Assembly (NCBI GenBank): GCA_043228905.1
Contig: JBHGNT010000020.1
Location: forward strand, 7,254,001 to 7,318,000
Length of the DNA: 64,000 nucleotides
DNA from: Azolla caroliniana
Lineage: Eukaryota; Plantae; Polypodiophyta
Reading direction: 5' to 3'
Below are positions 1,620-52,300 of this stretch, piece by piece. Within the stretch, counting starts at the first letter, position 1. Every line of letters begins with the position of its first letter. The notes under the pieces were generated by a model that made no database searches, was not told the origin of the DNA, and worked only from the letters and a program-made list of their open reading frames with translations. The position numbers and the translations under genes are program-made.

Positions 1620-2699
1620 TGTCGTGAAGATCCGTCACTACGCGCGGATCGTGAGGCGGAACCGTCGGGGTTCTGGACCAGAAGGATTTAGAGTCGATAC
1701 AAGCTTTGGCGAGAAAGTACTTAAGATAGATTGGGAAAGAGAGAAGTTGAGATTACACGATCAATTTGATAACGAATTTCTTCCTCTTAATTTTCATAAA
1801 AAAAAACCCCGTCTTTTTCTCCTCCCCCTTCCCTCTTTTATAGATGCTCTCATGCATATGATGCATGTGAGGGTACAAGACATGCATAAATTGCATGTTT
1901 GCCATTTGGCGCTTAAGTATTACATGTGGTGTATGCTAACCATGTCACTCATTTTAGCTCTCATGTATGAGTATTTACATTTAAAAGTACAATGATAGAA
2001 ATATAATTTCACCTAAATAGCATGGCTTAATGGTAAGCCAATTGACTCCTAACTTGGAGGTGCAAGGTTCGAATCCATAATTGCCCTCCTTGTATATGTA
2101 AATATGTATATATATTTATATATTTATTTTATCTAGTCACCGGACGCCGGTTCGCCGGATACCAGTGCCTCGCCGGATGCCGCCGCCGAATACCGGTCCC
2201 GCCGCCGGATGCGGCTACCGAATACCGGTGCCGCCGCCGGATGCCGTCGCCGGATACCGGTGCCGCATGCCGCCGCCGGATTGCGGTCTGATGCCATCGG
2301 ATCACCGGCTCCATCGCCGGTCCGGTTTTGGTTGGCCAAAACCCTTTTCGAGTAGCTAGCCACCTCCACTCTTAGTTCAAGTTACCTAGAACTCTCTATG
2401 CTCCACACATAGACACAAAGATAATATCTTTTGCTCCACCTTATATATGATGAGAGCCGTATTTGTCGTGCCTATGTGGGATATCTCACAATTTTCTCTT
2501 TTCTTTTCACAAACTTTATACCCTCATATCTTGACATTTAGTTGTCCATTTCTCGTGTAATAAAGTGCATTCGAAACCTCCATCATTTTGTACTTAGATA
2601 TTAAAAATGTTATCTTCACAATTATTGTATTACGTGATTCATACTCGATTTCGTACGTTTTATGGGATTTTCACACTATTGCCGAAAATCTTCACGACA
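1620..2699 (-). repeat. 5' LTR (~1080 bp) containing a CCGG-rich minisatellite (~2139-2325) and a tRNA-like A/B-box module (2023-2076)
   Basis: TG...CA termini with 12-bp inverted repeat; TATA-like CTATAAAAAG on the minus strand near 1834-1843. Confidence 0.85.
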
Positions 2700-3610
2700 A
2701 CGGCGTCGATTTTGTCCGGTCTCTTGTCCCCGAACTGAACCGGCAGCCAGAGGTCTTTAACCACGAGCATGTCCCTCATCTTCGACTTCCACACTGAATA
2801 GTTGGAGCCGGTGAGCTTGAACATGCCGCCAAACGATTCGTCCATTTTCTGTGTCATTCGCTCTAATACCACTTGACGGGAACTCAAGCGCTCCCTATAC
2901 GCAACGCTCGGCCACAACCGATCTTAGCATCATACACAGAAAAACGGGAAATAAAACACGACACGAAGAAGAAAACAAGTGCAGAGAATGTTTACGTGGA
3001 AAGCCCAAAGAGGGAAAAACCACGGTAGCCCACAGGTTGCAAACTATCACTATGCTAGAATGTACAACAGTGAGTTCACGGAGGCAACGACCTCGTGCTC
3101 ACGATCCTCGCCAGAGGCGGCGGTTACAACCGAGGCAACGACCTCTTTCTCTCTCACTCTCTGTACACAGTTATGCCCTCTCACTTTTCTTGCACCAACA
3201 ACTATATGTATAAAAGTTTGCCCTAAGTCATATTTATACTAATATGACTTTTCGGCTATTTACAAGTATAGCCTCAATGGACTCTCAGAAACATATTTAC
3301 GAATATGTCTCTTCATCCGGTTCTCACCGGGTCTGCACCATCCGGCTCTCCGTAGCCGGGTACTCCTCATCCGGTTCATACCGGGTCTACACCATCCGGC
3401 TCTCCGTAGCCGGGTACTCCTCATCCGGTTCATACCGGGTCTGCACCATCCGGCTCTCCGTAGCCGGGTACTCCTCATCCGGTTCATACCGGGTCTGCAC
3501 CATCCGGCTCTCCGTAGCCGGGTCCTCCTCATACGGTTTCAGCCTCAGCCGAGTTTGTTCATCGGCACTGTTCTTCTCCCTTCCCATCCGGAGGGACTTG
3601 TCTCCCAACA
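2700..3610 (-). mobile_element. Ty1/Copia element 5' end: LTR 2874-3610, iMet PBS and Gag N-terminus, interrupted by the Gypsy insertion
   Basis: PBS TGGTATTAGAGCG at 2859-2871; Copia Gag N-terminus MFKLTGSNYSVWKSKMRDML; LTR has the CGTGGAAA...GGGAAAAACCACG motif and is homologous to 62034-62776. Confidence 0.8.
3313..3536. repeat. 54-bp tandem repeat (4 full units) inside the Copia LTR
   Basis: TCATCCGG recurs at 3313, 3367, 3421 and 3475, with a variant at 3529. Confidence 0.9.
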
Positions 3611-6056
3611 AACTCCCCCTTCGCAAGGTCCATACGGATTCCATCTCTAGAGATGATGAAGCCGAGAAAACGGAGGTTGGTGCTTCCCCATCGACACTTC
3701 TTCCATTGGAGTTGCAAGTTATGCTTAGTTATACAAGCGAGGACTTCAGCCAGAGTTTGAAGATAATCCTCCCAAGTGGCCGTGTGGATAAGGATGTCGT
3801 CGAGATAAACAAGGAGGATGCCTTTACTGATAAGGCCGGAAAAGATGGAGTTTGCCATGTGTTGGAATGTGTTGTCGGCATCAGACAAGCCAAACGGCAT
3901 GAGGGTGAACTGGAATAGCCCGCGTCGTGTGCGGAATGCGGTCTTGTGGGCGTCAAACGACGTTAAGGGGATCTGCCAATATCCCAAGGCTAAGTCAAGG
4001 GAGGTGAAATAACAGGAGCCCCCGAGCTGGTCCAAGAGGTCGTCCACACGAGGGAGCGGGTAGCGGTCATGGATCGTCACTTTGTTGAGAGGCCTAAAGT
4101 CGATGTAGAAGCGGAAGGTGCCATCATCCCTCTTGACGAGGTGGGGTTCTGAAACCTAATCGCTAGTGGAAGGAATGATAATACCTTTGCTGAGCATATC
4201 GGTGACGGCAACATCAATGCAATTGTGGTCAAGGGGGGAACGTCGGCATGTAGCCATGCGGATGGGAGCGGCGTCCCCGGTACGAATGACATGTTTTACC
4301 GGGAAAGAGACAGTAGTGGCATGCGTGGGTTGGGGGGCTAGTGATGGAGAACGAGCTAACAATTGGCGGACGGAGATTAACCGCTCCTTGGGACTGAGGG
4401 CCACCTGGACTTGGTTGAGGTGGGGGACATGTGGGCTATCATGTAGGAGGGGGAATAGAGGGAGCTTGTGGGACAATCAGTTTGTGAGCATCGAAATCAA
4501 TCATAGCGCAACGCTTGAGGAGCCAATCGCAACCTAAGGTGAGGGGGAAGAGTTGGTGGGGCAAGACATTAAAGTGGTGTGAGAATGTGAGAGTGCCTAA
4601 GGTAACGGTGCAGTGGGCTTGCGTGCGAGAGTGGTATAGATGTTGGTGATCGCCAAAAAGCACTTGGATGGAAGGAGTGGTGGTTGTGGGGAGGCCAAAT
4701 TGGTGAACTAAGGCGGTGCTAATTGAAGAGATACTACTACCAGAGTCTAATAGGATGGTGTGTGTGGAGTGATTACCTGTGAACTAGAAGAGGCTGACAC
4801 TTGGACGTGGGGGGCTGGCTCTTCCATCAGTACCCCGGAAGTTAGTTTCCCGGAAGCTCAGCCAACGTTGCTGTGTCAGCCATGGTTATCTGGGCTTGCT
4901 GCTTGTGAGTTTTTGTTGCAATTTCCGGCAATAAAGTCGAACGTGTCCATAATTGTGGCAGTAGAAACACTTCAAGCGTCCTTGGGCATCGCGATTAGGA
5001 AGGTTTTAGCGAGTCTGCATCTGCACGTTTTGGACATCAATGTCCATGGGGATCACTCCTTGGTACTGCGCACGCAAGTCAGTCGATGGTGGAGGGGGCC
5101 ATCGTTGTTGGGAGTCAGATAGCGTACAAACTTCGATGCGTTGGGCAATGAGGATCGCATCGTTGGAGGTCTTGGGACCTTGGTCCCTGGCACGACGACT
5201 GATGTTAGGGCATAGAAGAGGCCATAAGAAGAAAAGCTTGACATGCTCGGGCATGGTTGGATCGGCCCGGACGAGGAGCTGATTTAGACGAACACCAAAT
5301 TGGCCTACTGGTTCCTGTGCTTGTTGTTGCAACGTCTCGACTTGTTGCAATGCTGTTTGGGCCCAATTTTGATGGGCAAAATATTGCATGAGGAGATCCC
5401 GGAGGATCACCCAGTTCTCCGTCACTTCGTTGGCTTGTTGTACGTACCAAGTGGCGGCGACATTTTCGAGCAAGGTGCGAACATCCAAAGCCTTGCGCTT
5501 GTTAGACCATTCCTGGTAACATGAGATCATCTCAAAGTGATCCAACCATGCTAAGACGTCCTCTGAGGGCAAGTGGAGAATGACTTTGGGAGAACCTTGG
5601 AATCTAGCTGATCTGGAGACCGATAGTTGGTAGCGGAGAGGAAGGATAGCATAACTTGGTTCGTGTGGCTGATTTGAAGCATGGCATTGGAGAGGACTTG
5701 CAGGAGTTGCTCCATTTGAAAGGGGGGTGGCCGCTCAGGAGGTCGTGGGAACTCAGATTGCATAGGGGTATCGACTTCGACGGCGACGGGAGGGAATTGG
5801 GACACCATTAACGAGGTGATAGTGGCAAAAAATGTACCCTGCATCTCCACCAATTATGTGAAATGCACATAAATGGAATCCAAACCAACATGCTTAGCTT
5901 CTTACTTCCTATTCAATTTATCACCGTACAAAGGTACCCATTTGGGTTGGCTTAACTTAGCTACATGCGTCCTAACAAGGGTATGCTAAAAGGGGCACAA
6001 AAGAACACATGCACACCGAACATAAAGGCATGCACTGGCATCCAAGGGACACCACA
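3611..6056 (-). mobile_element. Degenerate Ty3/Gypsy element (tRNA-Ala-primed): short LTR ~5857-6056, gag, protease, partial RT
   Basis: PBS TGGTGGAGATGCAGGGTA at ~5835-5852; Gag ORFs 5006-5853; CFYCHNYGH zinc knuckle at ~4920-4970; ILLDSGS protease at ~4730-4760; RT YLDD in ORF 3559-4080. Confidence 0.8.
3615..5853 (-). pseudogene. pol: gag-pol pseudogene (Gag, PR, RT), truncated within RT at the Copia LTR
   Basis: Broken ORFs 5551-5853, 5006-5572, 4439-4663, 4156-4476 and 3559-4080 carry Gypsy motifs (MPFGL, YLDD, FLGFIIS). Confidence 0.8.
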
Positions 6057-6302
6057 ACAATATATTTCGGTTCTCGTATTGTGTTCTTTATGTTCAATCT
6101 CTTCAATCTGCTGAGTTTTGGTTTTGCCTCTTGTTCCTAGACAATCTTATTTATCGTAGATCGATAGAATGTAAAGATTATAATATTAAACCATGAATTC
6201 CTCACATCCTTATTGTTTATAATTGTGTTGTTGTCCTAGGAGAATAATATTACAATTATTCTCGGAAATTATTTCTAAAGTTCTATCTTTCGAAATAAGT
6301 AA

Positions 6303-21051: not shown

Positions 21052-21932
21052 CAGTTGTTCAAAAATGGAAGTCCAAACACTATGAATTCAATATATTCAA
21101 CGTTTATTACATGACATGTATTTTCTTCGTCATCTTCGATCTCTTCTATCTAATTAGCACAAACATAAGCCTTGGAAAGCGTATCATTAGAGGTTTGTTA
21201 CTGGTTAGATATAATAATACCAAAATAGATAAATTCGTACACATGAAGAAACTTACTTGGGAAAGCAGTAGAAGAAAAAGAACAAAGTTTGGTTGTGTCG
21301 TTGCGCTCTCTATCAACATGGGAATTTGCTACAACTATAAGCCTAGGAAAACCAACAAATAAAGCTTCTTACTTGTGATATTTACCAAATATAGTTTGGA
21401 AATAGGTAACAAAAGCGACGATATAAATTTAGAATTGTTCGAAAGTCAAATGTTTTTAATTATACGTGCTTGGTTTTCATAGGAGAATGATACTGTAATT
21501 ATTATATGAAATTATTTCGAATCTTCGATCTATTACAAACATAATTTGGCTCAAACATAAGGCTTCAACAGCCCTTGACGCACTTAGAACGATCTTCGTT
21601 ACGAGATCTAGAAAATTTAATTTGCTAATTTGTAATAGAAGCGATGAGTTTCATAAGAATTGTGTGTTGTCAATCTAAACATGCTCAGTATACCTTACGG
21701 TTATCATATTATGTTCTTTATGTTCAATCTCTTCAATCCGCTGAATTTTGGTTTTGCCTCTTGTTCCTGGAAAATCTTAATTATTGTAGATCGATAAAAT
21801 GTAAAGATTATAATATTAAACCATGAATTCCTTACATGCGTATTGTTTATAATTGTCTTGTTTTCCTAGGAGAATTATATTACAATTATTATGGGAAACA
21901 ATTTCCAATCTTCTATCTTTTAAAATAAGCAA

Positions 21933-22012
21933 TGACAACTATGAGATTTGAACCCATGCCCTTGCGGATTGGAGCCTAAATCCAACGCCTTAGACCACTC
22001 GGCCAAATTGTC
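21933..22012 (-). tRNA. trnL-UAG: tRNA-Leu(UAG); one G:U pair in the T-stem
   Basis: Same as the 22900 copy except CCCAT>CTCAT in the T-stem. Confidence 0.65.
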
Positions 22013-22899: not shown

Positions 22900-22979
22900 T
22901 GACAACTATGGGATTTGAACCCATGCCCTTGCGGATTGGAGCCTAAATCCAACGCCTTAGACCACTCGGCCAAATTGTC
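22900..22979 (-). tRNA. trnL-UAG: tRNA-Leu(UAG), intact cloverleaf
   Basis: GACAATTTGGCCGAGTGGTCTAAGGCGTTGGATTTAGGCTCCAATCCGCAAGGGCATGGGTTCAAATCCCATAGTTGTCA: acceptor, D, anticodon (TAG), variable and T stems all pair; A/B boxes present; TATTTT downstream. Confidence 0.75.
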
Positions 22980-23866: not shown

Positions 23867-23946
23867 TGACAACTATGGGATTTGAACCCATGCCCTTGCG
23901 GATTGGAGCCTAAATCCAACGCCTTAGACCACTCGGCCAAATTGTC
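23867..23946 (-). tRNA. trnL-UAG: tRNA-Leu(UAG), intact cloverleaf
   Basis: Identical to the 22900-22979 copy. Confidence 0.75.
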
Positions 23947-27272: not shown

Positions 27273-27742
27273 TGTCATGATATGGCAAGACTCAAACCCA
27301 TGACCTTAGGTTATATGGGTCGAGCTCTTGACCATTATATCATCTATTGTAATACGTAAGATATTATTTTCATTTACATTTTATTATAGGAAATTAATGT
27401 ATATTCCAGATTTCTCTGGAACATTCTAGAAGCTTCAGGAATACTCCTGAGAACACTATAAAAGAAGGCACTAGGCATTATGTTGGACCAAATTGGTTTA
27501 ACGCTAGTCTTTAGCCTCATAGCCCTTTTGTACTTACTCTTCTTATAATATATAATATGTTATCATCATCTCTCTCTCTCTCTCGTCCTCACTATCTCTC
27601 TCTCTCTCTCCTCTTCTCTCTTCCTCTCTCGGGAGTCCTATGCAATCCCGTCCTCTTAGTACTAATAGTACTTCCCTTCTCTAGTACTAATTCTCTCTCT
27701 GTTTAGTACTAATCCTCTCTCTGTTTACTACTATTCCTGACA
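27273..27742 (+). repeat. 5' LTR of element A (470 bp)
   Basis: TGTCATGA...CCTGACA; TATAAAAG near 27457; followed by the non-tRNA PBS GTTTGAACCAATTT. Confidence 0.85.
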
Positions 27743-29052: not shown

Positions 29053-29840
29053 TGTCGTGCCTTTCGGCTCCGGATCGTTGCGTGAGTCGGGTGGGAACCG
29101 CCGAGGTTTTGGACTAGGAGAAAGAAGAATATGAGATGAGGCTAGTAATGAATAGATTATTAGAAAGAGAGATAGAAATTTCGTGAATCCCACGAGTGTA
29201 TTTTATTCGATTAATCAATATTTAGATAAGAATATGTATTTAGATTGAAAGAAAGATATAAGAAACTTGTGAATCCCACAAGTATAGATTATATTATTTT
29301 CGTGAATCCCACGATTATATTAATCGGTTGGTGTTTTCGGAAATATATCCAATTTCCAAATATTTCACACATAATTACATTGTGCTTCCCATCCTTATGT
29401 AGTGATGGGAGAGACTAAGCATAGCTACATGCTTTTTTTCTAATATGTTCATGCACACTAAATATGCATGTGATGCTTTTCTAATCCTTGCTTTTATTTG
29501 CTAAATATAGTGCTCATGCACGCTAGATGTGCATGAGTCACTTTTTAGTTGCTTGCGTTTTTCTATAAAATATTCACGCACTCTAAAAATGCACGATTTA
29601 CCTTTTAATAAAGGTAGGTGCAAATAAAGCACTTATAGTTATTAAATCTATTTGTAGAACACTAAAGATAAGGTAGCATAATGGTAAAGTTGAGGTTTGG
29701 CTACGTGGAGGTACAAGGTTCAAATCTTGCCCTATGCATGTGATAAATATCTTGATATATTATTTTATTTATTTATATGTAATTAAATCGGTTATATTAT
29801 TTTTTACTTTTTCACGTAGTGTACGAAATACACTACGACA
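29053..29840 (-). mobile_element. Solo LTR related to the Trp-primed family, inserted between gag and the protease core of element A
   Basis: TGTCGT...ACGACA termini; 4-bp TSD ACGT; its start resembles LTR 1620-2699. Confidence 0.8.
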
Positions 29841-31040
29841 ACGTCATAGCACTTCTAGACTCTAGAGCTAATTCTTGCTTAATGGATAGGAATTTTGCCC
29901 AAGCTCATCAGATATCTCTTAGAAAACTCCCGTATCCAGCCTCTGTAGTCGTCATTGATGGTCGTCCCATTGCTTCCGAAAATATCATAGAAGAGTCAGA
30001 ACCCGTTAATATTGTCCTAGATAACTTAGCATGTGTAGTATCATTTAACATTATTAGTATCCCAGAACATCCCATCGTTTTGGGATTACCATGGTTCGAG
30101 TTACATAACCCAGACATAGATTGGAGAACAAGAGAAATCCGGTATCGACAAACCCGAGGATCTACTCAGAAGATTGCCACCATTTCACTACATCAGTTGC
30201 GGGAAGAAGGATGCAAGGAAGAAACGTTTCTCTTCACAATATCACTAAAACCCTCCGACACCATTAAAGAGGAGTCCACCGTTCAGCTTCCAAAGAAGTA
30301 TCATCATTATGTCGATGTATTCAATAAAGTACGAGCCAATACGCTTCCTCACCATCGACCATATGATTGCCCCATCGATTTACAACCGGGGAAAGAGCCA
30401 CCACGAGGACCGATCTACATTTTGTCACCAACCGAGCTAGAAGTCCTTCGAGCCTATATAGAGGAGAATTTGGAGAATGGATTCATTCGACATTCGAAAT
30501 CTCCAACCGGCGCACCCATTTTCTTCGTCAAGAAAAAGGATGGCTCACTTGGTCTAGTGGTAGATTACCGTGGCTTGAATTGTCAAGACTGAGAGAGAGA
30601 AAGAGAGAAAAAGAGATAGAGAGATAATTGAAGAGAATTATTGTATTGAAGCGTAAAATGGATTACAAAGAGTAGGCTACAAAATGCCGTTGAACCAATT
30701 TAGGTTTGGGATGGGTGGTAGATCCCTATTTATAAGTAATAGAGAACACTCTAGAATATTCTACGTTATCCTAGAATGTAGAGCAATCTAGAAGATCTCT
30801 AGAGTATTCTAGAAGGTTCTAGTGGTATAGAATACTCTAGAATATTGTAGGTCATTCTAGAATGTAGAGTGATATAGAATATTCCTATGATATTAGATTT
30901 CATATTCTAGAGACTATACATATAAGAATATTAATACAATGGTTAAGGATTTGACATGTGTACAACAAGGTCGTGGGTTCAAATCCTTTCGAGTCATAAT
31001 GTGAGTGTCATCATCCTTTCGATGCATGATGTGAGTGTTA

Positions 31041-34000
31041 TCATGACACTATCCCCCTTCTTCGACGACACGTCTCACAGGTCGTAGGGTTTGTATTAGG
31101 ACCTGGTTTACAAGGATATTGGCGATGAAATGCATTGACGAGTTCTGCAGCATTGGAAAGATTTGCGGCAGGTTCCCAAGTTCGATCATTGGGGGTATAA
31201 CCTAGCCAATCGACTAAGTAATACAGCTTGTTGCGCACGATTTTAGAATCGAGAATGGCAGCAACTTCAAATTTAGGCCCGTCCAAGAACTCGACAGGTG
31301 GTGGGGGTGTCGTAAGTCGGCCCGGAATTGAACTTGTAGTATAAGGTTCCAAAAGGGATACATGAAACACCGGATGAAGATGCATGTGCGGAGGGAGGTC
31401 AAGACGAAATGCAACATCACTTATCTTACCAGTGATCATGTAAGGGCCAAAACGTTGGTAATCCAATTTACTGCAAGGTCGAGTGGTCTTGATGTTGTGT
31501 TGGAGAAGCCATACATAATCCCTAATGCGGAACTTTTTTGAGGAGTCTAGACGATGACGATCGGCAAGCCTCTTGTGTGTAAATTGAGCATCGTGCAAAT
31601 TGTGGAGAATGTTAGCTTGAATTTCTTGGAGGCGACTAAGACGATCCTCGGCAGCAGGGTTGGTAGGAACTTCTGGATGCGCATTCATCGTCCACCGAGG
31701 ATGACAGCCCGTATTTGCGAAAAATGGGGAATATCCTGTAGAAGAATGGGCTGAGTTTTTGTAAGCGAATTCCGCCAAGTGCGAAAAAGCAACCCAATCA
31801 TCTTGTTGATAGTTGATGAAACAACGAAGATATTGTTCCAATGTCTGGTTGGTACGCTCTGTTTGGCCATTTGTTTCAGGATGATAGCCCGAAGAAAGCT
31901 TAACTGAAATGTGAAGAAGTTTGAACATGTGCTTCCAAAACTTTGAGATGAATTGTGGACCACGATCACTAATAATATCATCTGGCAGACCATGATGCTT
32001 AAATACCTCCCGCATAACGAGATCATCCGCCTCTTGACTAGTAATTGACTTTGTACATGGCAAGAAATGTGCCATTTTGGTAAATCAATCAACCACTGTG
32101 AGAATTGCATCAAAACCTTTTGAAACTGGGAGATCAGTAATGAAGTCCAAGGATATAGACTTCCAAGGAGTTTCCAGAATGGGAAGTGGTTGTAGTAAGC
32201 CATAGGGTCGGTGACGAGGATTCTTTGATCGACAACATATATCACAACTCCGAACATAATCCTCAACAAAATGACGAAGGCGAGGCCACCAATAGCGTTG
32301 AGAAATTAATTCTAGAGTCTTGTGAACTCCAAACTTACCAGCCATTGGTGAGTCATGGCAATGTTGCAAAACTTGTAGCCGTGGGGGACCATCAGGAACA
32401 TACAATAAATTTTGTCGAAATAGAAAACCACCATGCCAATAGAACTGACAATAGTCATTACGAGGATTTTTCGACCGTGAGCAAGAAGCACGATCCGGGA
32501 CAATATGATCCAAAACATCCTTGGCGAAATCATTAGTGGCCATATGATCTCGAATGGAATCAAGAAGAGTGGAATTTTCAAGAGTTGTTATGGCGTTAAC
32601 TACCATTAATCGTAATCGATTAGGACCCAAAAGGATTTGTTTTTGATGCTCAAATGCAGGTTCCCCTGGACGAAGTTCCATATAAGAGCGCCGAGAAAGA
32701 GCATCTGCTTTGCCTTGCTGCATCCCAGGGCGATATATGATGATAAAATCGAAGTGAGTCAAAAATTGCGCCCACCGGGCTTGTCGTCGACTCAAGACTC
32801 GAGCATTTTGGAAATAAGTCAGGTTCTTATGATCATTGTAGACAATGATCTGCTAAGAAGAACCTTCTAGGAAATGTCGCCATTGTTGAAACGAATCCAC
32901 GATTGCAAGAAGCTCTTTGTCATGGATCTCATAGTTGATCTCTGCAGCTTCAAACTTTCGTGAATGAAAGGCGACAAGGTGTAGTTGTCCATCATCTCCA
33001 GTCTGCGAGAGGACACTCCCTAGTGCAAAATCGGATGCATCGGCTTCGAGGATGAAGCGTTTTGTTGGGTCGACATGTGCTAAGATAGGTGCCGTTGTAA
33101 ATGCTCGTTTTAAGCTTTCAAATGCCTTGGCTGCATCTGAACTCCATATAAATGGTCGATCTTTATGTGTGAGCTGAGTAAGCGGAAGCACAACCTTGGA
33201 ATAATCTTTAATAAATTTTTGATAAAAATTTGCAAACCCGAGAAAACATTGCACATCACGCACTGAAAGGGGCGTTTGCCACTCTAAAATTGCTTGTACC
33301 TTCATGGGGTCCATAGCAATACCATTTGACGATACAACATACCCCAAAAATTCCACTTGATTCTGGCCGAAACTACACTTTTCTAATTTTGTGTAGAGAC
33401 CATATTCTCGGAGTCGACGCAGTACCTGACGAACATGTTCATCATGCTCCTCTTGGGTCTTTGAGTAGATTAAAATATCATCTACGTAAACTATAGTGAA
33501 GATATCAAGAAAATCTCGAAAAATATCGTTCGCCATATGTTGGAAAATAGCAGGTGCATTCGTGAGACCGAATGGCATCACTGTATACTCAAAATGTCCA
33601 TAGCGAGTGCGGAAAGCTGTCTTCCATTCATCCCCGGGCGAATCCGAACTAGATTATATGCTCCACGAAGGTCCAACTTCGTGAAATATTTTGCACCACT
33701 GAGACGTTCCAAAAGATTCGGGATTAATGGTAGAGCATATCTATTCCGAATAGTCACTTTGTTTAGCCCTCGATAATCCACGACCAACCGAAGAGTCCCA
33801 TTCTTCTTCTTAACAAAGAAGATAGGTGCACCAGCAGGGGATCTAGAATGCCGAATGAATCCGTTTGCCAGATTCTCATCAATATATTCCCGCAAAGTTT
33901 CTAGCTCTACAGGGGAGAGATTATAAATTGGGCCCCATGGAGGTTCTTTCCCTGGTTGTAAGTCAATAGGGCAGTCGTATGGCCGATGCTCCGGCAATGT

Positions 34001-34690
34001 ATTGGCCTTCACCTTATCAAAGACATCTGAAAACTCCTTGTATTTCTCCGGAAGTTTAATATCCGCCTCATGTGAAGTGGATGATGGAGTTGCTATTATT
34101 GCGAAGACGAACATGGCCTCGTTCCCCCCTTCCTCTCGCAACTGTCGTAAAGAGATGGGCGATAACTCCGGGGATCTATTATCACATGTAGGAGAGAGGG
34201 ATGCAGGGTTTGTGCTTTTTTCCCAAGTCTCCTCAATTGTTCTTTTCATCCAATCAATCTTTGGGTTATGGAGTTCAAACCAGGGGAGACCTAGAACTAT
34301 TGGGTGTTCCGGACTACGAATAATGTTGAAAGAGATTATGCTTGCCAAATTGCCAAGAACTATCCTAATTGGCTCAGACTCCTCGACTATATCTCCTAAT
34401 GCTATGGGACGTCCATCAATGACTCCTACGGCTACTGGGTTGGGAAGCTTATTCAAGAGGATGTTTTGTGACAAGGCAAATTCACGATCCATGAAACAAG
34501 AGTTGGCTCCAGAATCTAGAAGGGCAGAGGCTAGGACTCGATGACATGTAGATGTGGTAAGCTCGACTTGTGCTGAAAAAACTCGACTCACTTGATTTGA
34601 TGAAATGGAACCACGACTAGGAACTAACTCTACATAGCTAGGATGGTCCAGCCAAATGGCTCCTATTTTGGCCGGACTTACTCGTTTAAC
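31041..34690 (-). pseudogene. pol: pol of element F (PR-RT-RH-INT-chromodomain) with a few frameshifts/stops
   Basis: [28 protein letters not shown]...SDRG...GQTER and chromodomain FEVAAILDSK...WEP across ORFs 33578-34591, 32853-33581, 32085-32795 and 31041-32075. Confidence 0.9.
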
Positions 34691-34701
34691 ACATCCTCTA
34701 A

Positions 34702-35802
34702 TTAACTCAAGACATCGAATCTATTCTCATGGCATGGACTATGAGGCTTATTTATGTTATTAGAAGTAACAATAGAACTCGATGTAGGGTTTTCATTGGC
34801 ACTTACTTGGTATACTTGACGCCTAGGTTTATGTGGACAATTTACAGCTATATGTCCTGGACCACCACAATACACGCAAAGGCGATGCGCTCGACGTCGT
34901 TGCTTCTCAGCATCTGATAACGGCCCACAACGTTGTGTTGACTCTATTTCCATCGGAGTGGGGCCATCCCTTGTAATGGGTCTAGAAACTTGTGGAGGCG
35001 TTGCGACTACGGAAGCGTAAGTCTGCTTAGGTTGGCGGCGTAACATTTGTTGGCGCTCAGAACGTCGCTCAAATAGGCGATTATCACATCGCACAGCTCG
35101 ATTAATAGCTTCTGTAAGTGACTGCGGATCTTCAAGGAAAGTAAGAAGAAGATCTTTGACATCGTTTCTCAAACCTTGACGGAATTGATCCATTAAAGCT
35201 ACCTCATCCCAAGGGATATCGCATGCCAAGAGACGGAAATCGGCTGCATAAGACGACACGGGACGATCTCCTTGTCGGAGCCTTCGAATCTTGTTTATCG
35301 CTGTCCTAGTGTTGTCGATGTCTCCGAAACTAGCTTGAAACTCTTTAACAAATGCCTCGAAATCCTCCAGCAATGGTGATTTCTTCTGGAGAAGTTGTGC
35401 GAACCATGCTAACGTCGTACCGCATAGCAAAGTTCCCACTAATCCCACACGAGCAGCATCAGTTGGATACCGATTGGGATGTAGCTGAATAACTAGACGA
35501 ACTTGATTCAAAAAGCCTCGAAATAAAGACCTCGTACCATCAAACTTGGCAGGGAGGCTGATCTTTGGCTCTCTAGGGGAGTTCTGAGCCCCCGACGCTT
35601 GCTCACGTAATGACAATATAGTCGCCTCGAGTTGATGAACCCGCTGTGATATTTCTTCATATTGTTGAGCTTTTTCGGCGCTCACGTGTTGTAGATCTCC
35701 AAGTAGCCTTTGATTCTCATGCTCTAATGCCACAAATTTATTCGTGAGCATGTCGAGCTCAGAAAGAACACGCATGTATTCTTGTTTGCTCACGGACTCC
35801 AT
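34702..35802 (-). CDS. gag: Gag of element F
   Basis: 366-aa ORF with [24 protein letters not shown] and the [14 protein letters not shown] zinc knuckle. Confidence 0.9.
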
Positions 35803-38800
35803 AGCTTACGAGAGGAGAGGAGAAGGAAGAAGAGAACTTGTTAGGATTTGTGGAAGACGAAGAGATGAAAGGAAAAAAATTGGTTCAAACTGTCAAGACT
35901 GAGAGAGAGAAAGAGAGAAAAAGAGATAGAGAGATAATTGAAGAGAATTATTGTATTGAAGCGTAAAATGGATTACAAAGAGTAGGCTACAAAATGTCAT
36001 TGAACCAATTTAGGTTTGGGATGGGTGGTAGATCCCTATTTATAAGTAATAGAGAACACTCTAGAATATTCTACGTTATCCTAGAATGTACAGTAATCTA
36101 GAAGATCTCTAGAGTATTCTAGAAGGTTCTAGTGGTATAGAACACCCTAGAATATTCTAGGTCATTCTAGAATGTAGAGTAATATAGAATATTCCTATGA
36201 TATTAGATTTCATATTCTAGAGACTATACATATAAGAATATTAATACAATGGTTAAGGATTTGACATGTGTACAACAAGGTCGTGGGTTCAAATCCTTTC
36301 GAGTCATAATGTGAGTGTCATCATCCTTTCGATGCATGATGTGAGTGTTATCATGACATGAATAAAGTTACAATCCGCAATAGGTATGCACTTCCCCTTA
36401 TCTCAAGTCTTTTAGAACAGATCAATGGTGCTAGGTTCTTCACAAAGATCAACTTACGGGGGGGGCCTATAACCTCGTACGGATCCAACCAGGAGATGAA
36501 TGGAAGACCGCGTTCCGCACTAGATATGGGCACTTCGAGTATACGGTCATGCCGTTCGACCTCACTAATACGCCAGCAGTCTTCCAGCACATGGCAAATG
36601 ATATATTCCGAGATCTCTTGGATGTGTGTCTGATCATCTACTTGAATGATCTACTAGTTTATTCAAAGACCAAAGAAGAGCATGATTCTCATGTATTGTT
36701 AGTACTAAAACGACTTCGAGAACATGGTCTTTACGCAAAACTAGAAAAATGTAGCTTCGGGTGCAACCAAGTGGAATTTCTCAGCTACGTCATTTCATCA
36801 TAAGGCATCTCCATGGACCTAGCTAAGGTCAAGACGGTGGTAGAATGGCAGACTCCGTGCTCGGTGCGGGATGTGCAATGCTTTTTAGGCTTTGCCAATT
36901 TTTACCGGAAGTTTATACAAGATTACTCAAAGCTCGTTCTGCCTCTCACACAGCTTACCAGGAAGGGACAATCATTCATTTGGTCTGAAGAAGTAGATAT
37001 GGCTTTCGAGATTCTTAAAAAGGCATTTACATCGGCTCCAATTCTAGCTCATGTCGATCCGGAAAAACCATTCATTATCGAAGTGGACGCATCGGATTTC
37101 GCATTGGGGAGCATTCTGTCACAACGGGGTAATGATGAGAAGCTATATCCTGTAGCTTTTCACTCACGCAAGTTTGACGCCACCGAAATCAACTACGAAA
37201 TTCATGATAAGGAGCTATTGGCAATAGTGGACTCGTTTATGCAATGGAGGCATTTTTTAGAAGGATCCTCTCATCAAGTCACCGTATTCAGTGACCATAA
37301 AAACCTTGCCTACTTTCAGGATGCTCGTGCGTTAAATCGATGTCAAGCTCGGTGGGCCCACTTCCTCACACGTTTCGACTTCAAAATCACATATCGTTCA
37401 GGGAAGCACCAAGGGAAGGCAAGGCGGATGCATTATCACGGCGTTCGTATCTAACACCGCGTCCTGGCGAGCCAACTTTCGATAACCAAAAGCAAGTAAT
37501 CTTTGGACCGGCACAACTGCAAGCAACACAGGTTTTTGGTATGCCCATGGATTCCCACATTATCAATATCATACGTGCGGACCTGAAGACAGATGCTTTC
37601 GCCCAAGCTATACTAGCACAAATTGATCCCTCTTGAGCGTCGTGTTCACAGTCGCAACCACCAGGTACAGACTATCGGCAATTCAAATACCATGATGGAT
37701 TACTATTCTTTAAAGAATTTTTGTATGTTCCTAATGGTTTTTGCCGCCTTCGAGTAGTACAAAACTGTCATGACACATATACAACTGGGAATTCTGGTAG
37801 TACTAAAACATTAGATTTAGTACAACGATCATTCTGGTGGCCCCGTATGCGACAATTTGTCGAAGATTTTGTTCGGACTTGTGATACATGTTGTAGAGCA
37901 AAAATGCCAAGGCATCATCCATATGGTTTATTAGAACCATTACCAATTCCAAGCAAGCCATGGCAATCCATTGCTCTAGATTTCATCACAAATCTTCCAG
38001 TCTCTAAGGGGTTCAATGCGATTCTAACAATGGTAGATCAATATACGAAGATGGCTCATTTCTTGCCATGTACTAAGGAAATCTCCAGTGAAGACACCGC
38101 CGAAATTATCATGCGTGAAGTATGTCGGCATCATGGACTTCCCGATAGTATCATCAGCGATCGTGGATCCCAGTTCGTGTCAAAATTTTGGAAGCACCTT
38201 TTTAAAATGCTCAAGGTCACTTGTAACCTCTCCTCCGGCTACCACCCACAAACCGACGGTCAAGCTGAACGAACAAATCAAACACTGGAGCAATATTTGC
38301 GGTTCTTTATCAGCTATCATCAGGATAACTGGGCAGATATTCTCCACTTTGTCGAATTTGCCTATAATAACTCTATCCACTCATCGACTAAAGTTATGCC
38401 ATTTTATGCTTATACGGGATGTCACCCTCGGTGGAGTGTACTTGAAACCCTAGAGGTGTCCACAAATCCTTGCGCGGAGGATCATTTGGAGTAGTTACGC
38501 AAGATACAAGCAGATTTATCTACTCATCTCCAGAAAGCTCAACAAACACACAAGGTCTATGCGGATCGCCATCGACTTCCATCTAGTTTTAACATTGGAG
38601 ATCGGGTGTGGCTGCTACGACGACACATAAAGACTACTTGCCAATGTGAGAAGTTGGATTATCGACAATTAGGCCCTTTCCGTATTATCGGAAAGATTAA
38701 TGATGCTGTTTTTCGTCTCGATCTACCTCCTCAACTTCGGATACATCCGGTGTTTCATAGTTCTCTCCTCGAACCCTATAACGAGAGCACCATCCCAGGA

Positions 38801-39061
38801 CGTATTATACAACCTCCACCCCCGATCGAGCTTGAAGATGGACCAGAGTACGAGGTCGCCGCCATCCTTGATTCCAAGATTGTTCGCAACAAGCTCTACT
38901 ATCTAGTCGATTGGCTAGACTATAGTCCCAACAAACGTACTTGGGAACCGACCAAGAATGTGACCAATGCTCGTGCGCTTCTTGAAGACTTCCATCTTCA
39001 ATATCCACACAAACCGGGTCCTCCATCCAAAACGACTCGTGACACTCGTCGTTTTAAAGAC

Positions 39062-39283
39062 TGATAGACAAAATACCAAGATCAAAGAAGACAGAAACTA
39101 TATTAAACGGTGCTCTCCAAAACACGCTAGCCCTTTACAGTGTTCTTTCACGCTTTACATACACAGGGCTTCTGATCGGTTACGGTTCCTGCGTGAACCG
39201 TTACATGCATTACTTTAACGCCCCTAATATACTAATTTATTTACAATGCGTTATGGCCGGCGGTTACAATTCCGGCAGACAAC
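39062..39283. repeat. Probable short LTR or LTR remnant at the junction of elements A and E
   Basis: TGATAG...CAACA termini; purine tract on the minus strand nearby (~39302-39310); no TSD found. Confidence 0.35.
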
Positions 39284-39315
39284 AGTATTGCAACTGAACG
39301 CGCCCCCCTATTATT

Positions 39316-46800: not shown

Positions 46801-48702
46801 TGTTTTGATCGTCCGCTCTGCCGCCGCCACCTTCCGTCTCTCCTGTCTCACGTGGGCTTTCGGGGCCGACCGCCGAAGTCTCTACAATAGGTGTGGGAAA
46901 AGTCTCGGTACCATCACTCGCCGATGTCATGTTTGTAGCCACCTTCGCTTGGACGCCATGGTCCGTGGCTATCTCGTCCCCGGTTACGCAAGCCTCAATT
47001 ATGCTTGCTACCTCCTCGTCCTCGTCCTCATCTCGGTTGCCCGCCTTGCCGTCGCCACCGCCCGTCGCTCTAGGACTCACGTCGGCACTCGGGCCGACCG
47101 CCGGAGCCTCTAGGACCGGTGTGGGTAAGGACCCGGCACCACCGCTCGTTGTGTCCGTAGCCGCCTCCGTCCGGACATCATTGTCCGCGGCTACCCCGCT
47201 TCTAATCGCGCAAGCCTCGGTTACGCTTGCTGCCGTCTCTTCCATGTCGTCGTCTCGGTTGCCCGCCTTGCCACCGCCACCACCCGTCGCTCTAGGTCTC
47301 ACGCTGGCACTCGGGCCGACCGCCGGAGCCTCTAGGACCGGTGTGTGTAAGGTCGCGGCACCGCCGCTTGTCTCCTCCCCACTTTATATTTCGGGCCGCC
47401 ATGTCCCGAATGCGTAGTTACCGGCCTCCATGGTTGTCCCTTCACTGCAAGGCAAGAGGGTCGCTTGCTCCACACCCTCTCCCATGTCGCCGTCGCACGC
47501 TCTTTCGGCCTCCGTATAGGGCCCGCCCCGTCTTCTATGCTTAGGGAGGCTTCTTCCTCTGCATCCTCCAATCGCCTTCGGCCCGACTCCATAATAAGCC
47601 CTTCTTCGGCTTCGATTTTCCCCTTCACAAGCTCACATGCCTCCAGTACCAATGCCTCTAGGTCGTACTCCTCCGGTTGATTGCGCATCGAGCTCTCTTC
47701 CGATGGTAGTGCGTAGCCACTCACCGCCCTTTCTTCTCCGCCGCTCGTGGGCCATGTTGTTGCCAACCGCTCCCCATCGGGTTGCCGGCATACCCACTCC
47801 GGTTTCGCGTATCCGTATGTGTCCAATAGAGCTCCCTCGAAGGACTCCCATGACTCGTGAGCTTCTCGTAGCTCCTTGACGTCCTTGTGCACCGATACGG
47901 CCGCCACTCGCGGAAAATACTCTATTCGCATCGCCTCGTCCACGCCCCCTTTTGCCATCTCGGCCTTGTAGGCTCCCAAAAATTTTGGGACCTCATTCCC
48001 ATTGAACCGGCCGACTCAATCGACCACCCTTTCGATAGCTTGTTGAGCCGCATCTCGCTTCGCCATCTTCCATCCGGCTTCCATCACGATCTTTGCCATC
48101 ATCTCCTCAAAGTTGAAGTCTTCTTCCATCTCCATGCTCCCTTGCCGCCCTTCACGTCGGGTTCACCAAATATGTCGCGTTGTTACGCGCGTGCGTGTAG
48201 GAAGAGGCGGGACCACGGGGGTCTTGGACTAGGGAGTAGAGGAGAAAGAATAATATATGTTTAGAAGCTTAGCTTAAGAGGAGAAGAAGAAAGAATAAGA
48301 TCACCACATAGAAGGAGAGATCGGCGGAGGTAAGATACTCAACAAGATATATTAAAACAAACAAATGATTACAACAATGGTGGCCGCATGGGCCGCACCA
48401 AACGACTATGAGAAAACCCTAACCGAAGACGAATAAGGAAATCTTAAACGAAACCCTAAACCTAAAACGGTAAGAACTCTAGACTAAGTGGTATACCTCT
48501 CACACGCAAAATAGGCAACCCCTTCATAAGTGACCCCTCCCTTCCTTTTATAGCCCAAGGAGGGAGGGACCTTACAATGTGGGATAAAATTTCCCCTCTT
48601 ATTTCTATAGACCATTTCCTAGTAATACATGTGCAAATGGTGCACACCATCGATTTGCCTATTCCACCCCGTTTCCGCCTATGGACGAAAATCTTCACGA
48701 CA
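43801..48702 (-). mobile_element. Non-autonomous Trp-primed LTR element D (gag N-terminus only, no RT/INT)
   Basis: ~530-bp LTRs 43801-44329 and 48173-48702; PBS 48151-48168; PPT GTGGGGGCGGA; 4-bp TSD GCGG/GTGG; internal Gag remnant then GC-rich repeats. Confidence 0.85.
46015..46356. repeat. 169-bp tandem duplication inside element D
   Basis: TTGATCTGCAACCGCCGAAG at 46021 and 46190. Confidence 0.9.
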
Positions 48703-48761
48703 GTGGTGAGCATGATTCACCATGAACCGGAGAAGGAACAACATACATCACCATGTCTTCA

Positions 48762-48967: not shown

Positions 48968-49362
48968 GATGTTATCCAATATTTATCCGATTTTGGTTCG
49001 ACTATATTTTTGGATGTTTTTGTATTACTTATTAAGTATAACACGTGTAAGATTAAGAATTAAAGCACCAAACAGCAAGTACACAATGAATAACAATTAA
49101 GAACAAAACACATTAATCTCATATTACTTCCATTAATCATTTACATAGATTCGGAATCCTTTTATAGCCATCCCATAAGAATTACAAAACAGTACCTTAT
49201 CGGCTACCGACTCTCAATCGGTGCAGTTCTGGATCGGTACAACTATACGGATCCGTCTGTTCATATAATATTACTTAAGCAATAATTATGCTACTAATTT
49301 AACATTATATTCTGACTCGTCCCCGTCCATATTACTCGTCCGGATCATACTCTAGGCCAACA
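48787..49362 (-). mobile_element. LTR related to 60896-61255, without a matching TSD
   Basis: Shared CTGGGCT(A/G)GACTTAGCCAC start and ATCATACTC..TAGGCCAACA end. Confidence 0.6.
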
Positions 49363-52300
49363 CGGGTGTCGTACCGGTTTGAAGGACCAGCCCCTCCGGC
49401 CTTCCCGACACGCTTATCTTCAACTAGAACCTCATAGTTCTGGAAAATCGCTTCCGTGAAACCGGTCTGCTCCTCCATTGGATCACTCCATACGGTGACC
49501 TCCCGGACCCGCCTCTCTGTGTGGTCCACTTCCTCCTTCTTTAGCTTCTTCCAAGAGAAGCATCCAGCACCTCCAACCAAAATCTGGTGTCGGTTGCGGA
49601 GTTGGTGCCCTTCTCTCCTCCTACCTAGATCCCTGCCAACGCCTAGTAGTGAACAATCTCTGCATGTCACACCACAACTTCCTCCATCAGTCTTTTCATG
49701 TTACCTCATCTGGTGTTCATCTCAAGGGGCCTTCACGTGTTGCTCGTGTGTACTCGATCGTTCCAAAGGTACACCACGATGTTCTTTAGCGCATCAACAA
49801 AGTCGGTGAAGTCTCTCTGGATGTGGCCGACCCTGTCGCACCACATGCATCTCGGGTCATTCGGAGGGCGCCAACCATGCGATTGACCCCCTCCTTCCCT
49901 TCAAGCTTGAGAGGTCTAGAGATCGTGCACCATCTTCATCAGCTCTTCCAGAGTTGCGCCACCAAATGGTCCCTCGACCACGTTGGTCGGAACTGGTGTC
50001 GTGAAGGATTTGCTTCACGATATGAAAATAAACTTAAATATTGTATTCAGTAATCTTATAAACCACAACCTTATAAACCAAGCACAAAGTAAATACCACT
50101 AGGCTACGTTATTTATTTTTGAAATATTCTAAAGAATGTGCTTCATGATATAAGAATGAACCTAAATATTATATTGAGTAAATTTGAGAGACTTGAACCC
50201 TCAACCTTGTATACCAAGCACAAAGTATGCACCACTAAGCTAAGTTATTTGTTTCAAAAACATATTTCCATCACTATACTTACTTATTCCATTTCTATTT
50301 CATACATGGGAGCTCAAATCAGCATGATGACTATCATGCATCACATGTAATGCATGTGCGCCAAATGGTGATCATGCATCACATGAAATTCATGCATGTC
50401 ATGCATGTCATGCTCCCACACATTACCATATGGATGACAATACTTATATAAAGAGGGGGAAGGAAAAGAAGAAGGGGAAGGAAGAGAAAGTTAAAAAATA
50501 ATATAATAAACAAACTAGCTCATTTGTGAAGTTTTTTATCTCTCAACACTTAAGGTGAGGGCTCAAGTCGGAATTTGGAAGAGAAAAGGTTCATCTTGCG
50601 ATGAAGCATTGTAAAGTTGGTAACATCTTGTATTCTTAATATAAATCATGCTCATATCATATACTTTTGCTTCTGAAATCATACATTCTCTGTCTATTAT
50701 CTATGCTCGTCTCTCTCTCACACATTACTTTTAACTCTTCTTCTTCCTATTCTTAATCTTTCTCACATCAACGCATAAGCCTTATACAAAATTTAGTCAA
50801 TTGTCTTTAACCTTAGTCCCTGTGACTTCGCCGCACAAACCACAACTACCCTGACACTAGGCCTGACTCAAGCCACCTTCTTATCTCTTCAGACCAAGTC
50901 AAAATCTCCTCCGACCTCTTCCCGGCAGTCGGGCCGGTCGTCGACGACCTCGCGTCGTTCCATTCGTGTTGTTTGTAGAAACGGCTACAAACCCTTTTGA
51001 CCACAACCCAATCGGTCATGAGCCCTTCATCCGTCTCCAAGAGGAGACTAGCCTTCTCCCGATCAAGTGGATCAACCGACTTGATAAATAATAGAACCTT
51101 GCTCGTATCGAGCACGGTCTAGTCTAACACTGAGAGTTGAGCGAATCGTTTTTCAAACTCCAAGAGGTGCACTAATGTATTCCTCCCTTTCCGGACTCTC
51201 AACCCATTCCATGAACTCCTTCTTCGACAACCAGAGCGAGTCGTTGAAGCCATACCTCTCGAGGAGCCGTCCCTCAAACTTCGACCAATTCCAACAATTA
51301 GCTTGGACCTCGGACACTTCCGTGTGGATGCTCGGCGTCACAACCCATGGGAATCCGGACAACTATCTGTCCTCTGGGATGTCCCTCATTATCATTTCCG
51401 CCCTATAGGCCTCCATGTAGCTTGTCACGTACTTTCCATTAAATCAGCCTATCGTGTCGACTATCATTTCGATGGCCTTGTCGAGGCCACCTGCGCTTTC
51501 CCACGCATTCACTAGATGGTTAACGGCCACCGCCATTTCCTCCACAAGTTTGCTTCCCCTCATTTTGGATTCCTTTGCCACCCCCCTTCACATCGGGTTC
51601 ACCAAAGATGTCCCAAAAATTTTGCATGTGTGTGTCGGAACGGGGTGGGACCACCGGGTTCTTGAACGAAGGAGCTGGTAAGAGAGAGTGAAGTGTTTAT
51701 CTGGATCGATCTCCGAATATCTTCACCGGTACATGGTCCGGGCACGTAACCATTCGGGTTCTGGTCACTTGAAGCCAGATGATAAGCAGACACACTCAGA
51801 TGCACATGGGCTCAGACGCACGAATTGTTCTAGATCAGATATGGGACACTCAAACGCTCGAACTGTTCTGACATGCAAACAGTTCCAAGCCTATCACTGG
51901 GTAACAACGATGAGCTAAATGGCTCAGATGCTCGAGTACACACGCAGGTGAGAGGGAATAGAGACGAGAACACGCGTAGAGATAGAGATGCACACAACGA
52001 CACAGAGAATTTTGGATACAACAAGGATAATCGATTAGTCTGTGATAGAGGAAGATACACCCAGACTCGGCCGGTAACAGAGCTTCGAGCTCTTCACACA
52101 CCCACACCTGACTAATGAGCCTCTGGTCGGGTGCACACGGGTTTCCTACGTGAGCAAAGGCCTTACCGAAACCTAACGAATGTACAGAACAGAAAACCGA
52201 AAGCCTGTAGAGCTCAATCCGACAGCACTTCGTTCTCCAAACGATGGATCCCTTTACAACAGTTCAAACCTCCCTTTCTATAGCACAAGGGGAGGTCGTT

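Follow-up and report, generated by a model that had tools for sequence, protein, structure and literature searches.

tRNA-type A/B-box modules conserved in the long terminal repeats of two Gypsy lineages at an Azolla caroliniana locus

Introduction

The closest described relatives of the sequences studied here are Helenus and TRIMp3 (Kojima 2024, PMC10886601), short non-coding TRIMs of 311-1263 bp with one plant case, in Selaginella. Their LTRs carry tRNA-derived sequence in which boxes A and B are conserved, mostly without a functional tRNA, and a SINE insertion is the probable origin. The same paper argues that autonomous partners, which have to rely on Pol II, are not likely to have LTR sequence of this kind in common with them. 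Repbase is said there to contain "not a few LTRs" that are tRNA-like; as the analysis was confined to TRIMs below 1 kb, larger examples may have been noticed and left undescribed. Cassandra and Ajax TRIMs likewise hold a captured Pol III internal promoter in their LTRs, with conserved boxes and hypervariable neighbouring sequence; theirs differs from the present one in being of the 5S type, in sitting in non-autonomous elements and in replacing the Pol II promoter, and in Cassandra it drives the element's transcript (bioRxiv 2023.07.14.548913; PMC12786077).

Promoters made of an A and a B box are also found at chromatin edges, where tDNA and ETC/TFIIIC barriers act independently of orientation (S. 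pombe cen1 tDNA-Ala, PMC2040200; PMC12409998; PMC6538654), and LTRs have been proposed as boundaries in fission yeast too (same sources). The S. pombe tDNA barrier, which works in either orientation, requires the A box and Pol III (PMC2040200), and TFIIIC-only sites can also act as barriers (PMC12409998). Chromodomain elements, in turn, are thought to target heterochromatin (PMC7466625). Among the Gypsy lineages, Tcn1 is self-priming, with a chromodomain and a 5-bp TSD, and Phygy has a Trp PBS and a 4-bp NCGN TSD (Neumann 2019, PMC6317226; Novikova 2010, PMC2864245); the passages searched in these two papers make no mention of tRNA-like or Pol III sequence in Tcn1 or Phygy LTRs. In a literature search that did not extend to most subscription papers and Repbase Reports, no description of conserved A/B boxes turned up for the LTRs of autonomous Tcn1 or Phygy elements.

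Results

The window is a stretch of 64,000 nucleotides of the Azolla caroliniana genome (contig JBHGNT010000020.1, positions 7,254,001 to 7,318,000). An earlier note, made from its letters, had claimed six A/B-box modules at 43- or 44-nt spacing in the LTRs of five families, and coordinates, strands and spacings were confirmed for all six (Table 1). The scan patterns, TRGCNNARYGG for box A and GGTTCRANTCY for box B, are the textbook consensus and were not fitted to the sites. Across the 44.4 kb of the window outside the tRNA array, scanning with up to three mismatches and a spacing of 38-50 nt returned exactly these six modules, and 30 local dinucleotide shuffles gave a mean of 0.33 and a maximum of 1 (mean 0.47, maximum 2 at a spacing of 40-46 nt). 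Three modules (2023, 29674 and 50189) match without any mismatch, and three were found at up to two mismatches, a level at which 0 of 30 shuffles had any. Loosening the spacing to 30-70 nt still gave six modules, but shuffles then averaged 2.2 and reached 5 at most. Chance was therefore rejected as their source (six found, 0.3-0.5 expected), and the excess over shuffled DNA on which the earlier note's reading depended was borne out. All six modules are antisense to their element. As had been proposed for LTRs with a visible TATA, the module lies upstream of it in LTRs A, B and D and in both E LTRs; a TATA pattern search found none in LTR C.

Table 1. Positions of the modules and of the elements that carry them (window coordinates).
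Feature	Positions	Strand	Remarks
Element A PBS	~1594-1611		gag next at 482-1561
5' LTR of Phygy-type element A	1620..2699	-	TATA ~1836-1843
Module of LTR A	2023..2076	+	0 mismatches, spacing 43, antisense to element
5' LTR of self-priming Tcn1 element B	27273..27742	+	TATA at 27456
Module of Tcn1 LTR B	27288..27342	-	spacing 44; B box 16 nt from LTR end
GAA/TTC repeat array of LTR B	27419-27441
Solo LTR C, Phygy-type	29053..29840	-	4-bp TSD ACGT; nested within element B
Module of solo LTR C	29674..29727	+	0 mismatches, spacing 43
Tcn1 chromovirus E, full-length	30581..36358	-	gag, PR, RT, RH, INT, chromodomain; frames interrupted; 5-bp TSD TGAAT
Element E LTRs, 468 nt	30581-31048 and 35891-36358		8 differences between them
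Element E TATA	~30736 and 36046
Element E GAA/TTC arrays	30754-30884 and 36064-36194
Module, 3' LTR of element E	30932..30986	+	spacing 44; B box 63 nt from end
Module, 5' LTR of element E	36242..36296	+	spacing 44; points outward into flanking DNA
Element B integrase C-terminus and chromodomain	38495..39064	+	3' LTR missing
LTR D, 5' part	49997..50545	+	TATA ~50443; Phygy-type via homology to A
Tandem duplicate of D module, degenerate	50054..50106	-	A box retained, B box decayed
Module of LTR D	50189..50242	-	0 mismatches, spacing 43

Neither ARAGORN nor the Rfam tRNA model (E<=10) matched at any window module, the Rfam model (E<=10) gave no match at the modules of 18 relative loci either, and a cloverleaf with an acceptor stem is absent; functional tRNA genes were thus rejected. 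The tRNA-Leu array of the window was also considered as the parent tRNA, and the modules are too short-armed for it. The longest direct repeats flanking the modules measure 0-8 nt, in AT-rich DNA, and none makes a convincing TSD. Moreover, the two LTRs of element E have the module at the same place, and its position is fixed across the Tcn1 clade. Independent SINE insertions, with their own TSD and tail and polymorphic within a family, which the earlier note had named as an alternative, are therefore not what was found.

Elements B and E share one integrase clade and show the features of Tcn1 (integrase chromodomain, self-priming, 5-bp TSD), on which their assignment is based. Element E is 5.8 kb long with gag-pol, and the module of its 3' LTR points towards the PPT and the integrase. 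Element B has a PBS-like site whose complement lies within its own LTR, and its integrase groups with those of L007/L009 inside the module-bearing clade; the B box of its module has decayed at C56, which the deep-coverage relatives L007/L008 retain. From the end inward, Tcn1 LTRs are ordered B box, A box, AT tract, GAA/TTC array and TATA. We take the array to be heat-shock-element-like.

LTRs A, C and D represent the Phygy type. A PBS that is presumably of the tRNA-Trp type was seen in A and the TSD ACGT in C, D was placed by LTR homology only, and the window holds no pol of the three. Their LTRs align at 67% over 253 nt (A-D) and 75% over 79 nt (A-C), and B and E belong to one clade, so the earlier description of the LTRs as otherwise dissimilar does not hold. 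The three have perfect boxes and a spacer identity of 0.23; the B box lies 115-625 nt from the LTR end, and a T4 run follows 35-160 nt past it (the first at 50 nt in A and 35 nt in C). A PBS pattern search matched 0 of 58 relative loci, so that the evidence for the Phygy type comes from A, C and D, from locus L050 and from the family-C contigs; viral contigs matched neither the PBS pattern nor integrase. In family C, C56T at the B-box CpG accounts for about 18% of contig depth, itself a rough weight. Among the 14 invariant and variable-loop positions C56 alone varies, and 13 of the other 40 module positions do, mostly at low depth and in other species, which makes this a weak test.

Of the convergent capture in five families that had been proposed, the two lineages (self-priming chromoviruses and Trp-primed Gypsy, here Tcn1 and Phygy-type) stand and the five do not: with B and E in one integrase clade and A, C and D homologous, five independent captures were rejected. 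The module has a single origin within the Tcn1 clade, and captures probably number two, one per lineage.

To place the modules among relatives, we used 56 Tcn1 metagenome loci from one set of assemblies, a redundant sample (41 sequences; 14 clusters at 80%). The PPT and terminal motif located 38 3' LTRs independently of the boxes. An antisense module is present in 32 of them, 16-63 nt from the LTR end and with a spacing of 43-44 nt in 30 of the 32, and a sense-strand module in none (0/38; shuffles 1/760). Antisense placement, claimed earlier for every module, is accordingly the rule and not invariant: one family outside the window (L039/L047) carries the module in sense, upstream of TATA and with T4 about 25 nt past the B box, its orientation being read from TATA context only. 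Whereas the Helenus promoter is proposed to make genomic RNA, the present modules stand beside a TATA, antisense in 32/38 LTRs and sense in 0/38; they also belong to full-size pol-encoding elements rather than non-coding TRIMs (PMC10886601). In several loci with a module, pol stays free of stops for more than 1100 codons. Protein homologue searches gave matches without informative names.

Sequence identity was compared over 250 pairs from 26 Tcn1 representatives. The 4-fold degenerate integrase sites are saturated (0.41), and the spacer (0.45) and flanks (0.39-0.43) lie close by. The invariant positions reach 0.87 in the A box and 0.86 in the B box, values with some circularity, since the best box match served to anchor each module; variable-loop positions 44-48, which are not part of the search pattern, reach 0.81. 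Stem pairing does not rise above control level (acceptor 0.34 vs 0.33, D 0.71 vs 0.69, T 0.68 vs 0.69). The earlier observation that boxes and spacing persist, with differing sequence between them and no acceptor stem, therefore extends to the relatives. That invariant positions are kept while synonymous sites are saturated and stems lost points to selection on a DNA promoter and not on a tRNA.

Tcn1 A boxes depart from the consensus at positions 10-11. In the Tcn1 representatives the 30 nt upstream of the module are 83% AT, and CAA occurs at -6..+5 in 14/26, against 3/26 in each of two control windows. An AT-rich upstream region and CAA are plant Pol III upstream elements (PMC13578239), although CAA lies closer to the A box here than in tRNA genes. 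A and B boxes at tRNA spacing and this upstream region are features that the modules share with a type 2 (tRNA-type) Pol III promoter. T4 follows within 51 nt of the B box in 12/26 representatives and is missing within 400 nt in another 12/26. In sum, the module is conserved as a family feature at tRNA spacing in two Gypsy lineages. The earlier suggestion of an undescribed LTR system needs narrowing, as Helenus already has tRNA-derived A/B boxes in its LTRs (PMC10886601).

Discussion

We consider it an even bet that the modules are tRNA-derived A/B boxes that form a TFIIIC/Pol III barrier on the outer side of the Pol II promoter. Active copies very probably carry a working TFIIIC site and, given such a site, a barrier or promoter-opening role is somewhat favoured. 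TFIIIC would bind the A and B boxes in U3 and TFIIIB would load on the adjoining AT-rich tract, immediately inward of the A box, producing a block of open chromatin that would separate flanking heterochromatin from the GAA/TTC array and TATA. Selection would act via copies that have landed in heterochromatin and are still transcribed. Pol II would continue to produce the genomic RNA from the TATA, with Pol III RNA, if any, as a by-product. More tentatively, autonomous plant Gypsy elements may have captured a stripped tRNA promoter at least twice as a portable TFIIIC/Pol III barrier, holding their Pol II promoter open in heterochromatin. Whereas described tDNA and ETC barriers are host loci of yeast and mammals with tested activity (PMC2040200; PMC12409998; PMC6538654), the modules are borne by mobile elements and lack a cloverleaf. 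Against this reading, Tcn1 A boxes deviate from the consensus, many genomic copies are unprotected (C56T in family C and in window copy B), and the module is dispensable: the Trp-primed window families F and G, the Copia-like LTRs and LTR H gave no module profile match above 12 bits, and it is absent from 9/9 distant chromoviruses with a recognisable LTR start.

The modules may instead be working Pol III promoters whose selected product is an antisense RNA, which we judge unlikely. Starting in a Tcn1 3' LTR, this RNA would extend across U3 and the PPT and into integrase for several hundred nt, and its role would be to adjust copy number, reverse transcription or the activity of the 3' LTR. Such a product would suit the antisense placement of the six window sites and of 32/38 relatives, the retention of an A box that TFIIIC-only sites do not need, and the 12/26 Tcn1 representatives in which the 400 nt past the B box contain no T4. 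Sense A4 runs, which are antisense terminators, are also scarce in the last 250 integrase codons (10 vs 17.2 expected; codon resampling, 7 elements, p about 0.01, post hoc), a dip that 7 outgroup elements lack. However, AATAAA-like words are equally depleted in the same region (3 vs 8.0), and the A4 deficit is accounted for just as well if early polyadenylation is avoided. Termination is not conserved (T4 within 51 nt in 12/26), transcripts of the Phygy-type modules A and C would end 35-50 nt past the B box, inside the LTR, spacer identity is at background, and one family carries the module in sense. Of the two putative functions, insulator and antisense RNA, LTR anatomy favours the insulator.

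Improbable, in our estimate, is a B box near the U3 end that brings TFIIIC to the cDNA or intasome for nuclear retention or integration near Pol III genes, as Ty1, which targets Pol III genes, would give precedent for. The Tcn1 B box does lie 16-63 nt from the end, true tRNA genes stand beside Tcn1 pieces in 2/58 loci (a count with no background estimate), and element B is 2.4 kb from the tRNA-Leu array; but in Phygy-type LTRs this distance is 115-625 nt, the A box would be superfluous, and C and E did not insert upstream of a Pol III promoter but within coding regions of another retrotransposon. Since these nested insertions sit in coding DNA, self-targeting into the module was also rejected. 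We give similarly little credence to a fold of RNA or single-stranded cDNA, with D-loop/T-loop contact, serving packaging or plus-strand priming next to the PPT. Conservation of variable-loop positions 44-48, G23 and T35 outside the classical boxes, the occurrence of pair 11-24 as C-G, T-A and T-G, and an anticodon stem paired at 0.42 against 0.35 in partner shuffles would agree with it. Yet slid anticodon-stem controls reach 0.47, the acceptor, D and T stems pair no better than partner shuffles, the 18 loci have no Rfam tRNA match, and the genomic RNA has the complement of the tRNA-like strand. A SINE insertion is a likely source of the modules, as proposed for Helenus (PMC10886601), and one old SINE or tRNA insertion into the ancestral LTR of each lineage might have persisted as a functionless passenger; the single Tcn1-clade origin, the homology of A, C and D, the sister families and outgroups without a module and the decay of copies at CpG all agree with this. 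A passenger would nevertheless decay evenly, and the excess identity of the invariant positions (0.81-0.87, against 0.39-0.45 for spacer, flanks and synonymous sites) largely refutes it, with spacing still 43-44 in 30/32; we hold it very improbable.

The barrier reading bears on how heterochromatin-targeting retrotransposons remain transcribed in silent chromatin. If it is true, these elements would carry their own anti-silencing device, a Pol III-type insulator in a plant; tDNA-type insulation would then work in plants and provide a compact natural insulator for transgenes, and retrotransposition would have spread many TFIIIC sites through these genomes. The module offers a 55-nt mutable handle whose informative letters are known. 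Whatever its function, the selection signal extends LTR Pol III promoters from TRIMs to autonomous elements, an extension considered unlikely in the Helenus paper (PMC10886601).

Modules of the window

The earlier note had placed six modules, each a tRNA-type A box and B box pair, in the U3 of window LTRs, and all six were found there. At ≤3 mismatches, standard A/B consensus patterns matched these six sites and no others in the 44.4 kb outside the tRNA-Leu array, against a mean of 0.33-0.47 in shuffled sequence; the boxes are above chance. Three had zero mismatches, and 0 of 30 shuffles gave any module at ≤2 mismatches. Neither ARAGORN nor Rfam called a tRNA at the six positions.

The window is made up of nested LTR retrotransposons and one tandem tRNA-Leu array (Table). 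The array genes called by ARAGORN comprise 11 TAG and 1 TAA, with additional decayed copies, and adjacent young units share 96% identity; the array is a homocluster in heterochromatin-like surroundings. The modules lie in Tcn1 chromovirus elements (B and E) and in Phygy-type LTRs (A, C and D). Homology links these last three (67% over 253 nt for A with D, 75% over 79 nt for A with C), which contradicts the suggestion that the LTRs are otherwise dissimilar. The PBS of A is presumably of the tRNA-Trp type, and some contigs skip the insertion of C. A Trp PBS and a 4-bp NCGN TSD are the Phygy hallmark (Additional file 5 of PMC6317226, in excerpt), and the same source, as far as available, limits reports of Tcn1 and Phygy elements to moss and club-moss, which suggests a moss-type plant as host. 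No module was found in the other window LTRs (F, G, a Copia-like pair, H). F and G are both Trp-primed, the gag of F is related to that of A, and F, present as three LTR copies, is likely non-autonomous because its interior gave no Pfam pol match. The LTR-to-PBS gap, usually 0-3 nt, is longer in A (8 nt) and F (4 nt).

Coordinates of features in the window and in relatives (L-numbers, loci on metagenome or assembly contigs)
Feature	Position	Strand	Remarks
tRNA-Leu(TAG) tandem array	about 5900-25500	minus	unit about 967 bp; 12 ARAGORN genes
Element A 5' LTR	1620-2699	minus	then PBS, then gag
LTR-to-PBS gap, A	about 1611-1619		
Element B 5' LTR	27273-27742		self-priming chromodomain element
LTR C, solo	29053-29840	minus	TSD ACGT; nested within B
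Element E	30581-36358		self-priming chromodomain element; TSD TGAAT; LTR pair, 8/468 differences
LTR D piece	49997-50545	plus	
GAA/TTC arrays between module and TATA	27419-27441, 30754-30884, 36064-36194		Tcn1 LTRs of window
Element F, Trp-primed	43801-48702		LTRs 96% identical; interior gag and repeats
LTR-to-PBS gap, F	48169-48172		
Solo LTR of F family	58009-58548		84%
Antisense module in reversed LTR	L027 143-196	plus	
Second A/B pair	L010 368-420, L013 2953-3005	minus	
Sense-oriented module	L039 611-665, L047 584-639	minus	T4 about 25 nt past B box
True tRNA genes near Tcn1 fragments	L006 552-627, 831-906; L056 1046-1118		

Conservation among Tcn1 relatives

One metagenome scan with an integrase-chromodomain alignment as query provided 58 loci. 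In 38 of these, the PPT and the terminal motif were enough to fix the LTR start, and 130 nt or more of LTR was available; the other 20 had no automatic LTR start (16, two of them distant at 30% identity) or were too short (4). An antisense module was present at ≤3 mismatches in 32 of the 38 LTRs, with a box spacing of 43 or 44 in 30 of these 32 and 16-63 nt between the B box and the end of the LTR; sense-strand modules numbered 0/38 (shuffles, 1/760). Of the six LTRs without a match, four retain a decayed module at the expected site, and the remaining two have suffered truncation or deletion; inspection by hand added five further loci with the module. The set is redundant, its 41 sequences collapsing into 25 clusters at the 90% level and into 14 at 80%. 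At one locus, a different Tcn1-like LTR inserted reversed into gag carries an antisense module, and in two others, both of one Tcn1 family, the part of the pol frame that links protease and RT contains a further tRNA-like A/B pair in antisense, with 2 mismatches and a spacing of 42. In 2/58 loci, true genes for tRNA-Asn, -Thr and -Arg lie at most about 1 kb from Tcn1 fragments.

Conservation was measured on 26 representatives, excluding two truncated LTRs and two with spacings of 41 and 46, over the 250 of 325 pairs with enough alignable codons. Identity at invariant positions reached 0.87 in the A box and 0.86 in the B box, against 0.41 at four-fold degenerate integrase sites, 0.45 in the spacer and 0.39-0.43 in the flanks. 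Variable-loop positions 44-48 scored 0.81, a value free of anchoring bias because this loop lies outside the search pattern. The three Phygy-type modules behave like those of Tcn1 (boxes 0.81-0.92, spacer 0.23), and the sequence between the boxes differs, as noted earlier. Stem pairing matched shuffled sequence for the acceptor (0.34 vs 0.33), D (0.71 vs 0.69) and T stems (0.68 vs 0.69); anticodon-stem pairing was 0.42 vs 0.35, yet slid controls reached 0.47. The tRNA stems are not maintained, and the persistence of boxes and spacing without an acceptor stem is borne out. In contigs of four public runs aligned at module C, the majority keep the B-box CpG form, C56T making up about 18% in the deepest run. 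Loose contig ends there belong to other repeat families sharing the B-box region; in these the spacer is unrelated, yet the A-box core beyond it keeps its register. The module is a real, lineage-wide, selected feature.

Origin and orientation

A distant set of 31 chromovirus integrase loci (31-53% identity) came from contigs in genome assemblies of bacteria and archaea, where they are most likely contaminants of eukaryotic origin. No module was detected in these 31, including nine with a recognisable LTR start (best 7.1 bits, null maximum 7.4; window modules, 34-40). In the midpoint-rooted integrase tree, from which L039 and L040 were dropped for short alignments, 19 module-bearing rows stood on one side of a branch and nine without it opposite (support 95/97), so the module was gained once within this Tcn1 clade. 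A second gain probably occurred in Phygy, and the two lineages may have exchanged modules. Convergent capture in five families therefore narrows to two lineages. The antisense placement also described earlier holds for the 32 Tcn1 LTRs, but an extra family (L039/L047) has its module on the sense strand, with a TATA in an F-like context about 95-160 nt downstream; this orientation is only inferred, since the contigs lack the PBS.

Possible function and relation to known systems

Tcn1 LTRs run from the end through B box, A box, an AT-rich tract (83% AT, CAA enriched) and a GAA/TTC array to the TATA. The GAA/TTC units resemble heat-shock elements, and heat induction is possible. With TFIIIC on the boxes, TFIIIB would be positioned at the AT tract and would stand between the flanking DNA and the Pol II enhancer-promoter. 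In fission yeast, a complex of this kind acts as a heterochromatin barrier in either orientation and depends on the A box (PMC2040200, in excerpt), TFIIIC sites have barrier activity in yeast and mammals (PMC12409998, in part), and heterochromatin is the thought target of chromodomain elements (PMC7466625, available text). Spacer sequence, LTR-end distance, terminator position and even orientation vary between lineages; to judge from sequence, what is common is the promoter, not a product, which favours a role as barrier or promoter opening, to which we give roughly even chances. Against such a role, heterochromatin reportedly leaves little room for Pol III transcription in plants (PMC13578239, in excerpt), C56T, a change of the methylation type, is present in many copies, and sister families manage without the module. 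As the main rival, selection may act on an antisense RNA that Pol III would make from the 3' LTR: the final 250 codons of integrase are poor in antisense terminators (10 vs 17.2, p about 0.01), although this comparison was made post hoc and words resembling poly(A) signals are just as rare there.

Known captures of Pol III promoters concern the non-autonomous TRIMs Helenus, Ajax and Cassandra, where the promoter makes, or is proposed to make, element RNA (PMC10886601; bioRxiv 2023.07.14.548913; PMC13570524; all in excerpt), and according to a review of 2025, Cassandra is the exception among the LTR elements of plants in using Pol III (PMC12786077, available text). Unlike TRIMp3 (Helenus), the elements bearing the window modules are neither short nor non-coding, and their promoter does not face the template. 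The Tcn1 literature, in the available portions of PMC2864245 and PMC6317226, mentions no such LTR feature, the word "tRNA" is absent from the main text of PMC7466625 as available, and no published description was found in the literature searched. Kojima mentions tRNA-like LTRs in Repbase, unanalysed (PMC10886601, in excerpt). By their sequence, the modules are Pol III promoters captured by LTRs in a new form, with a function that we infer.
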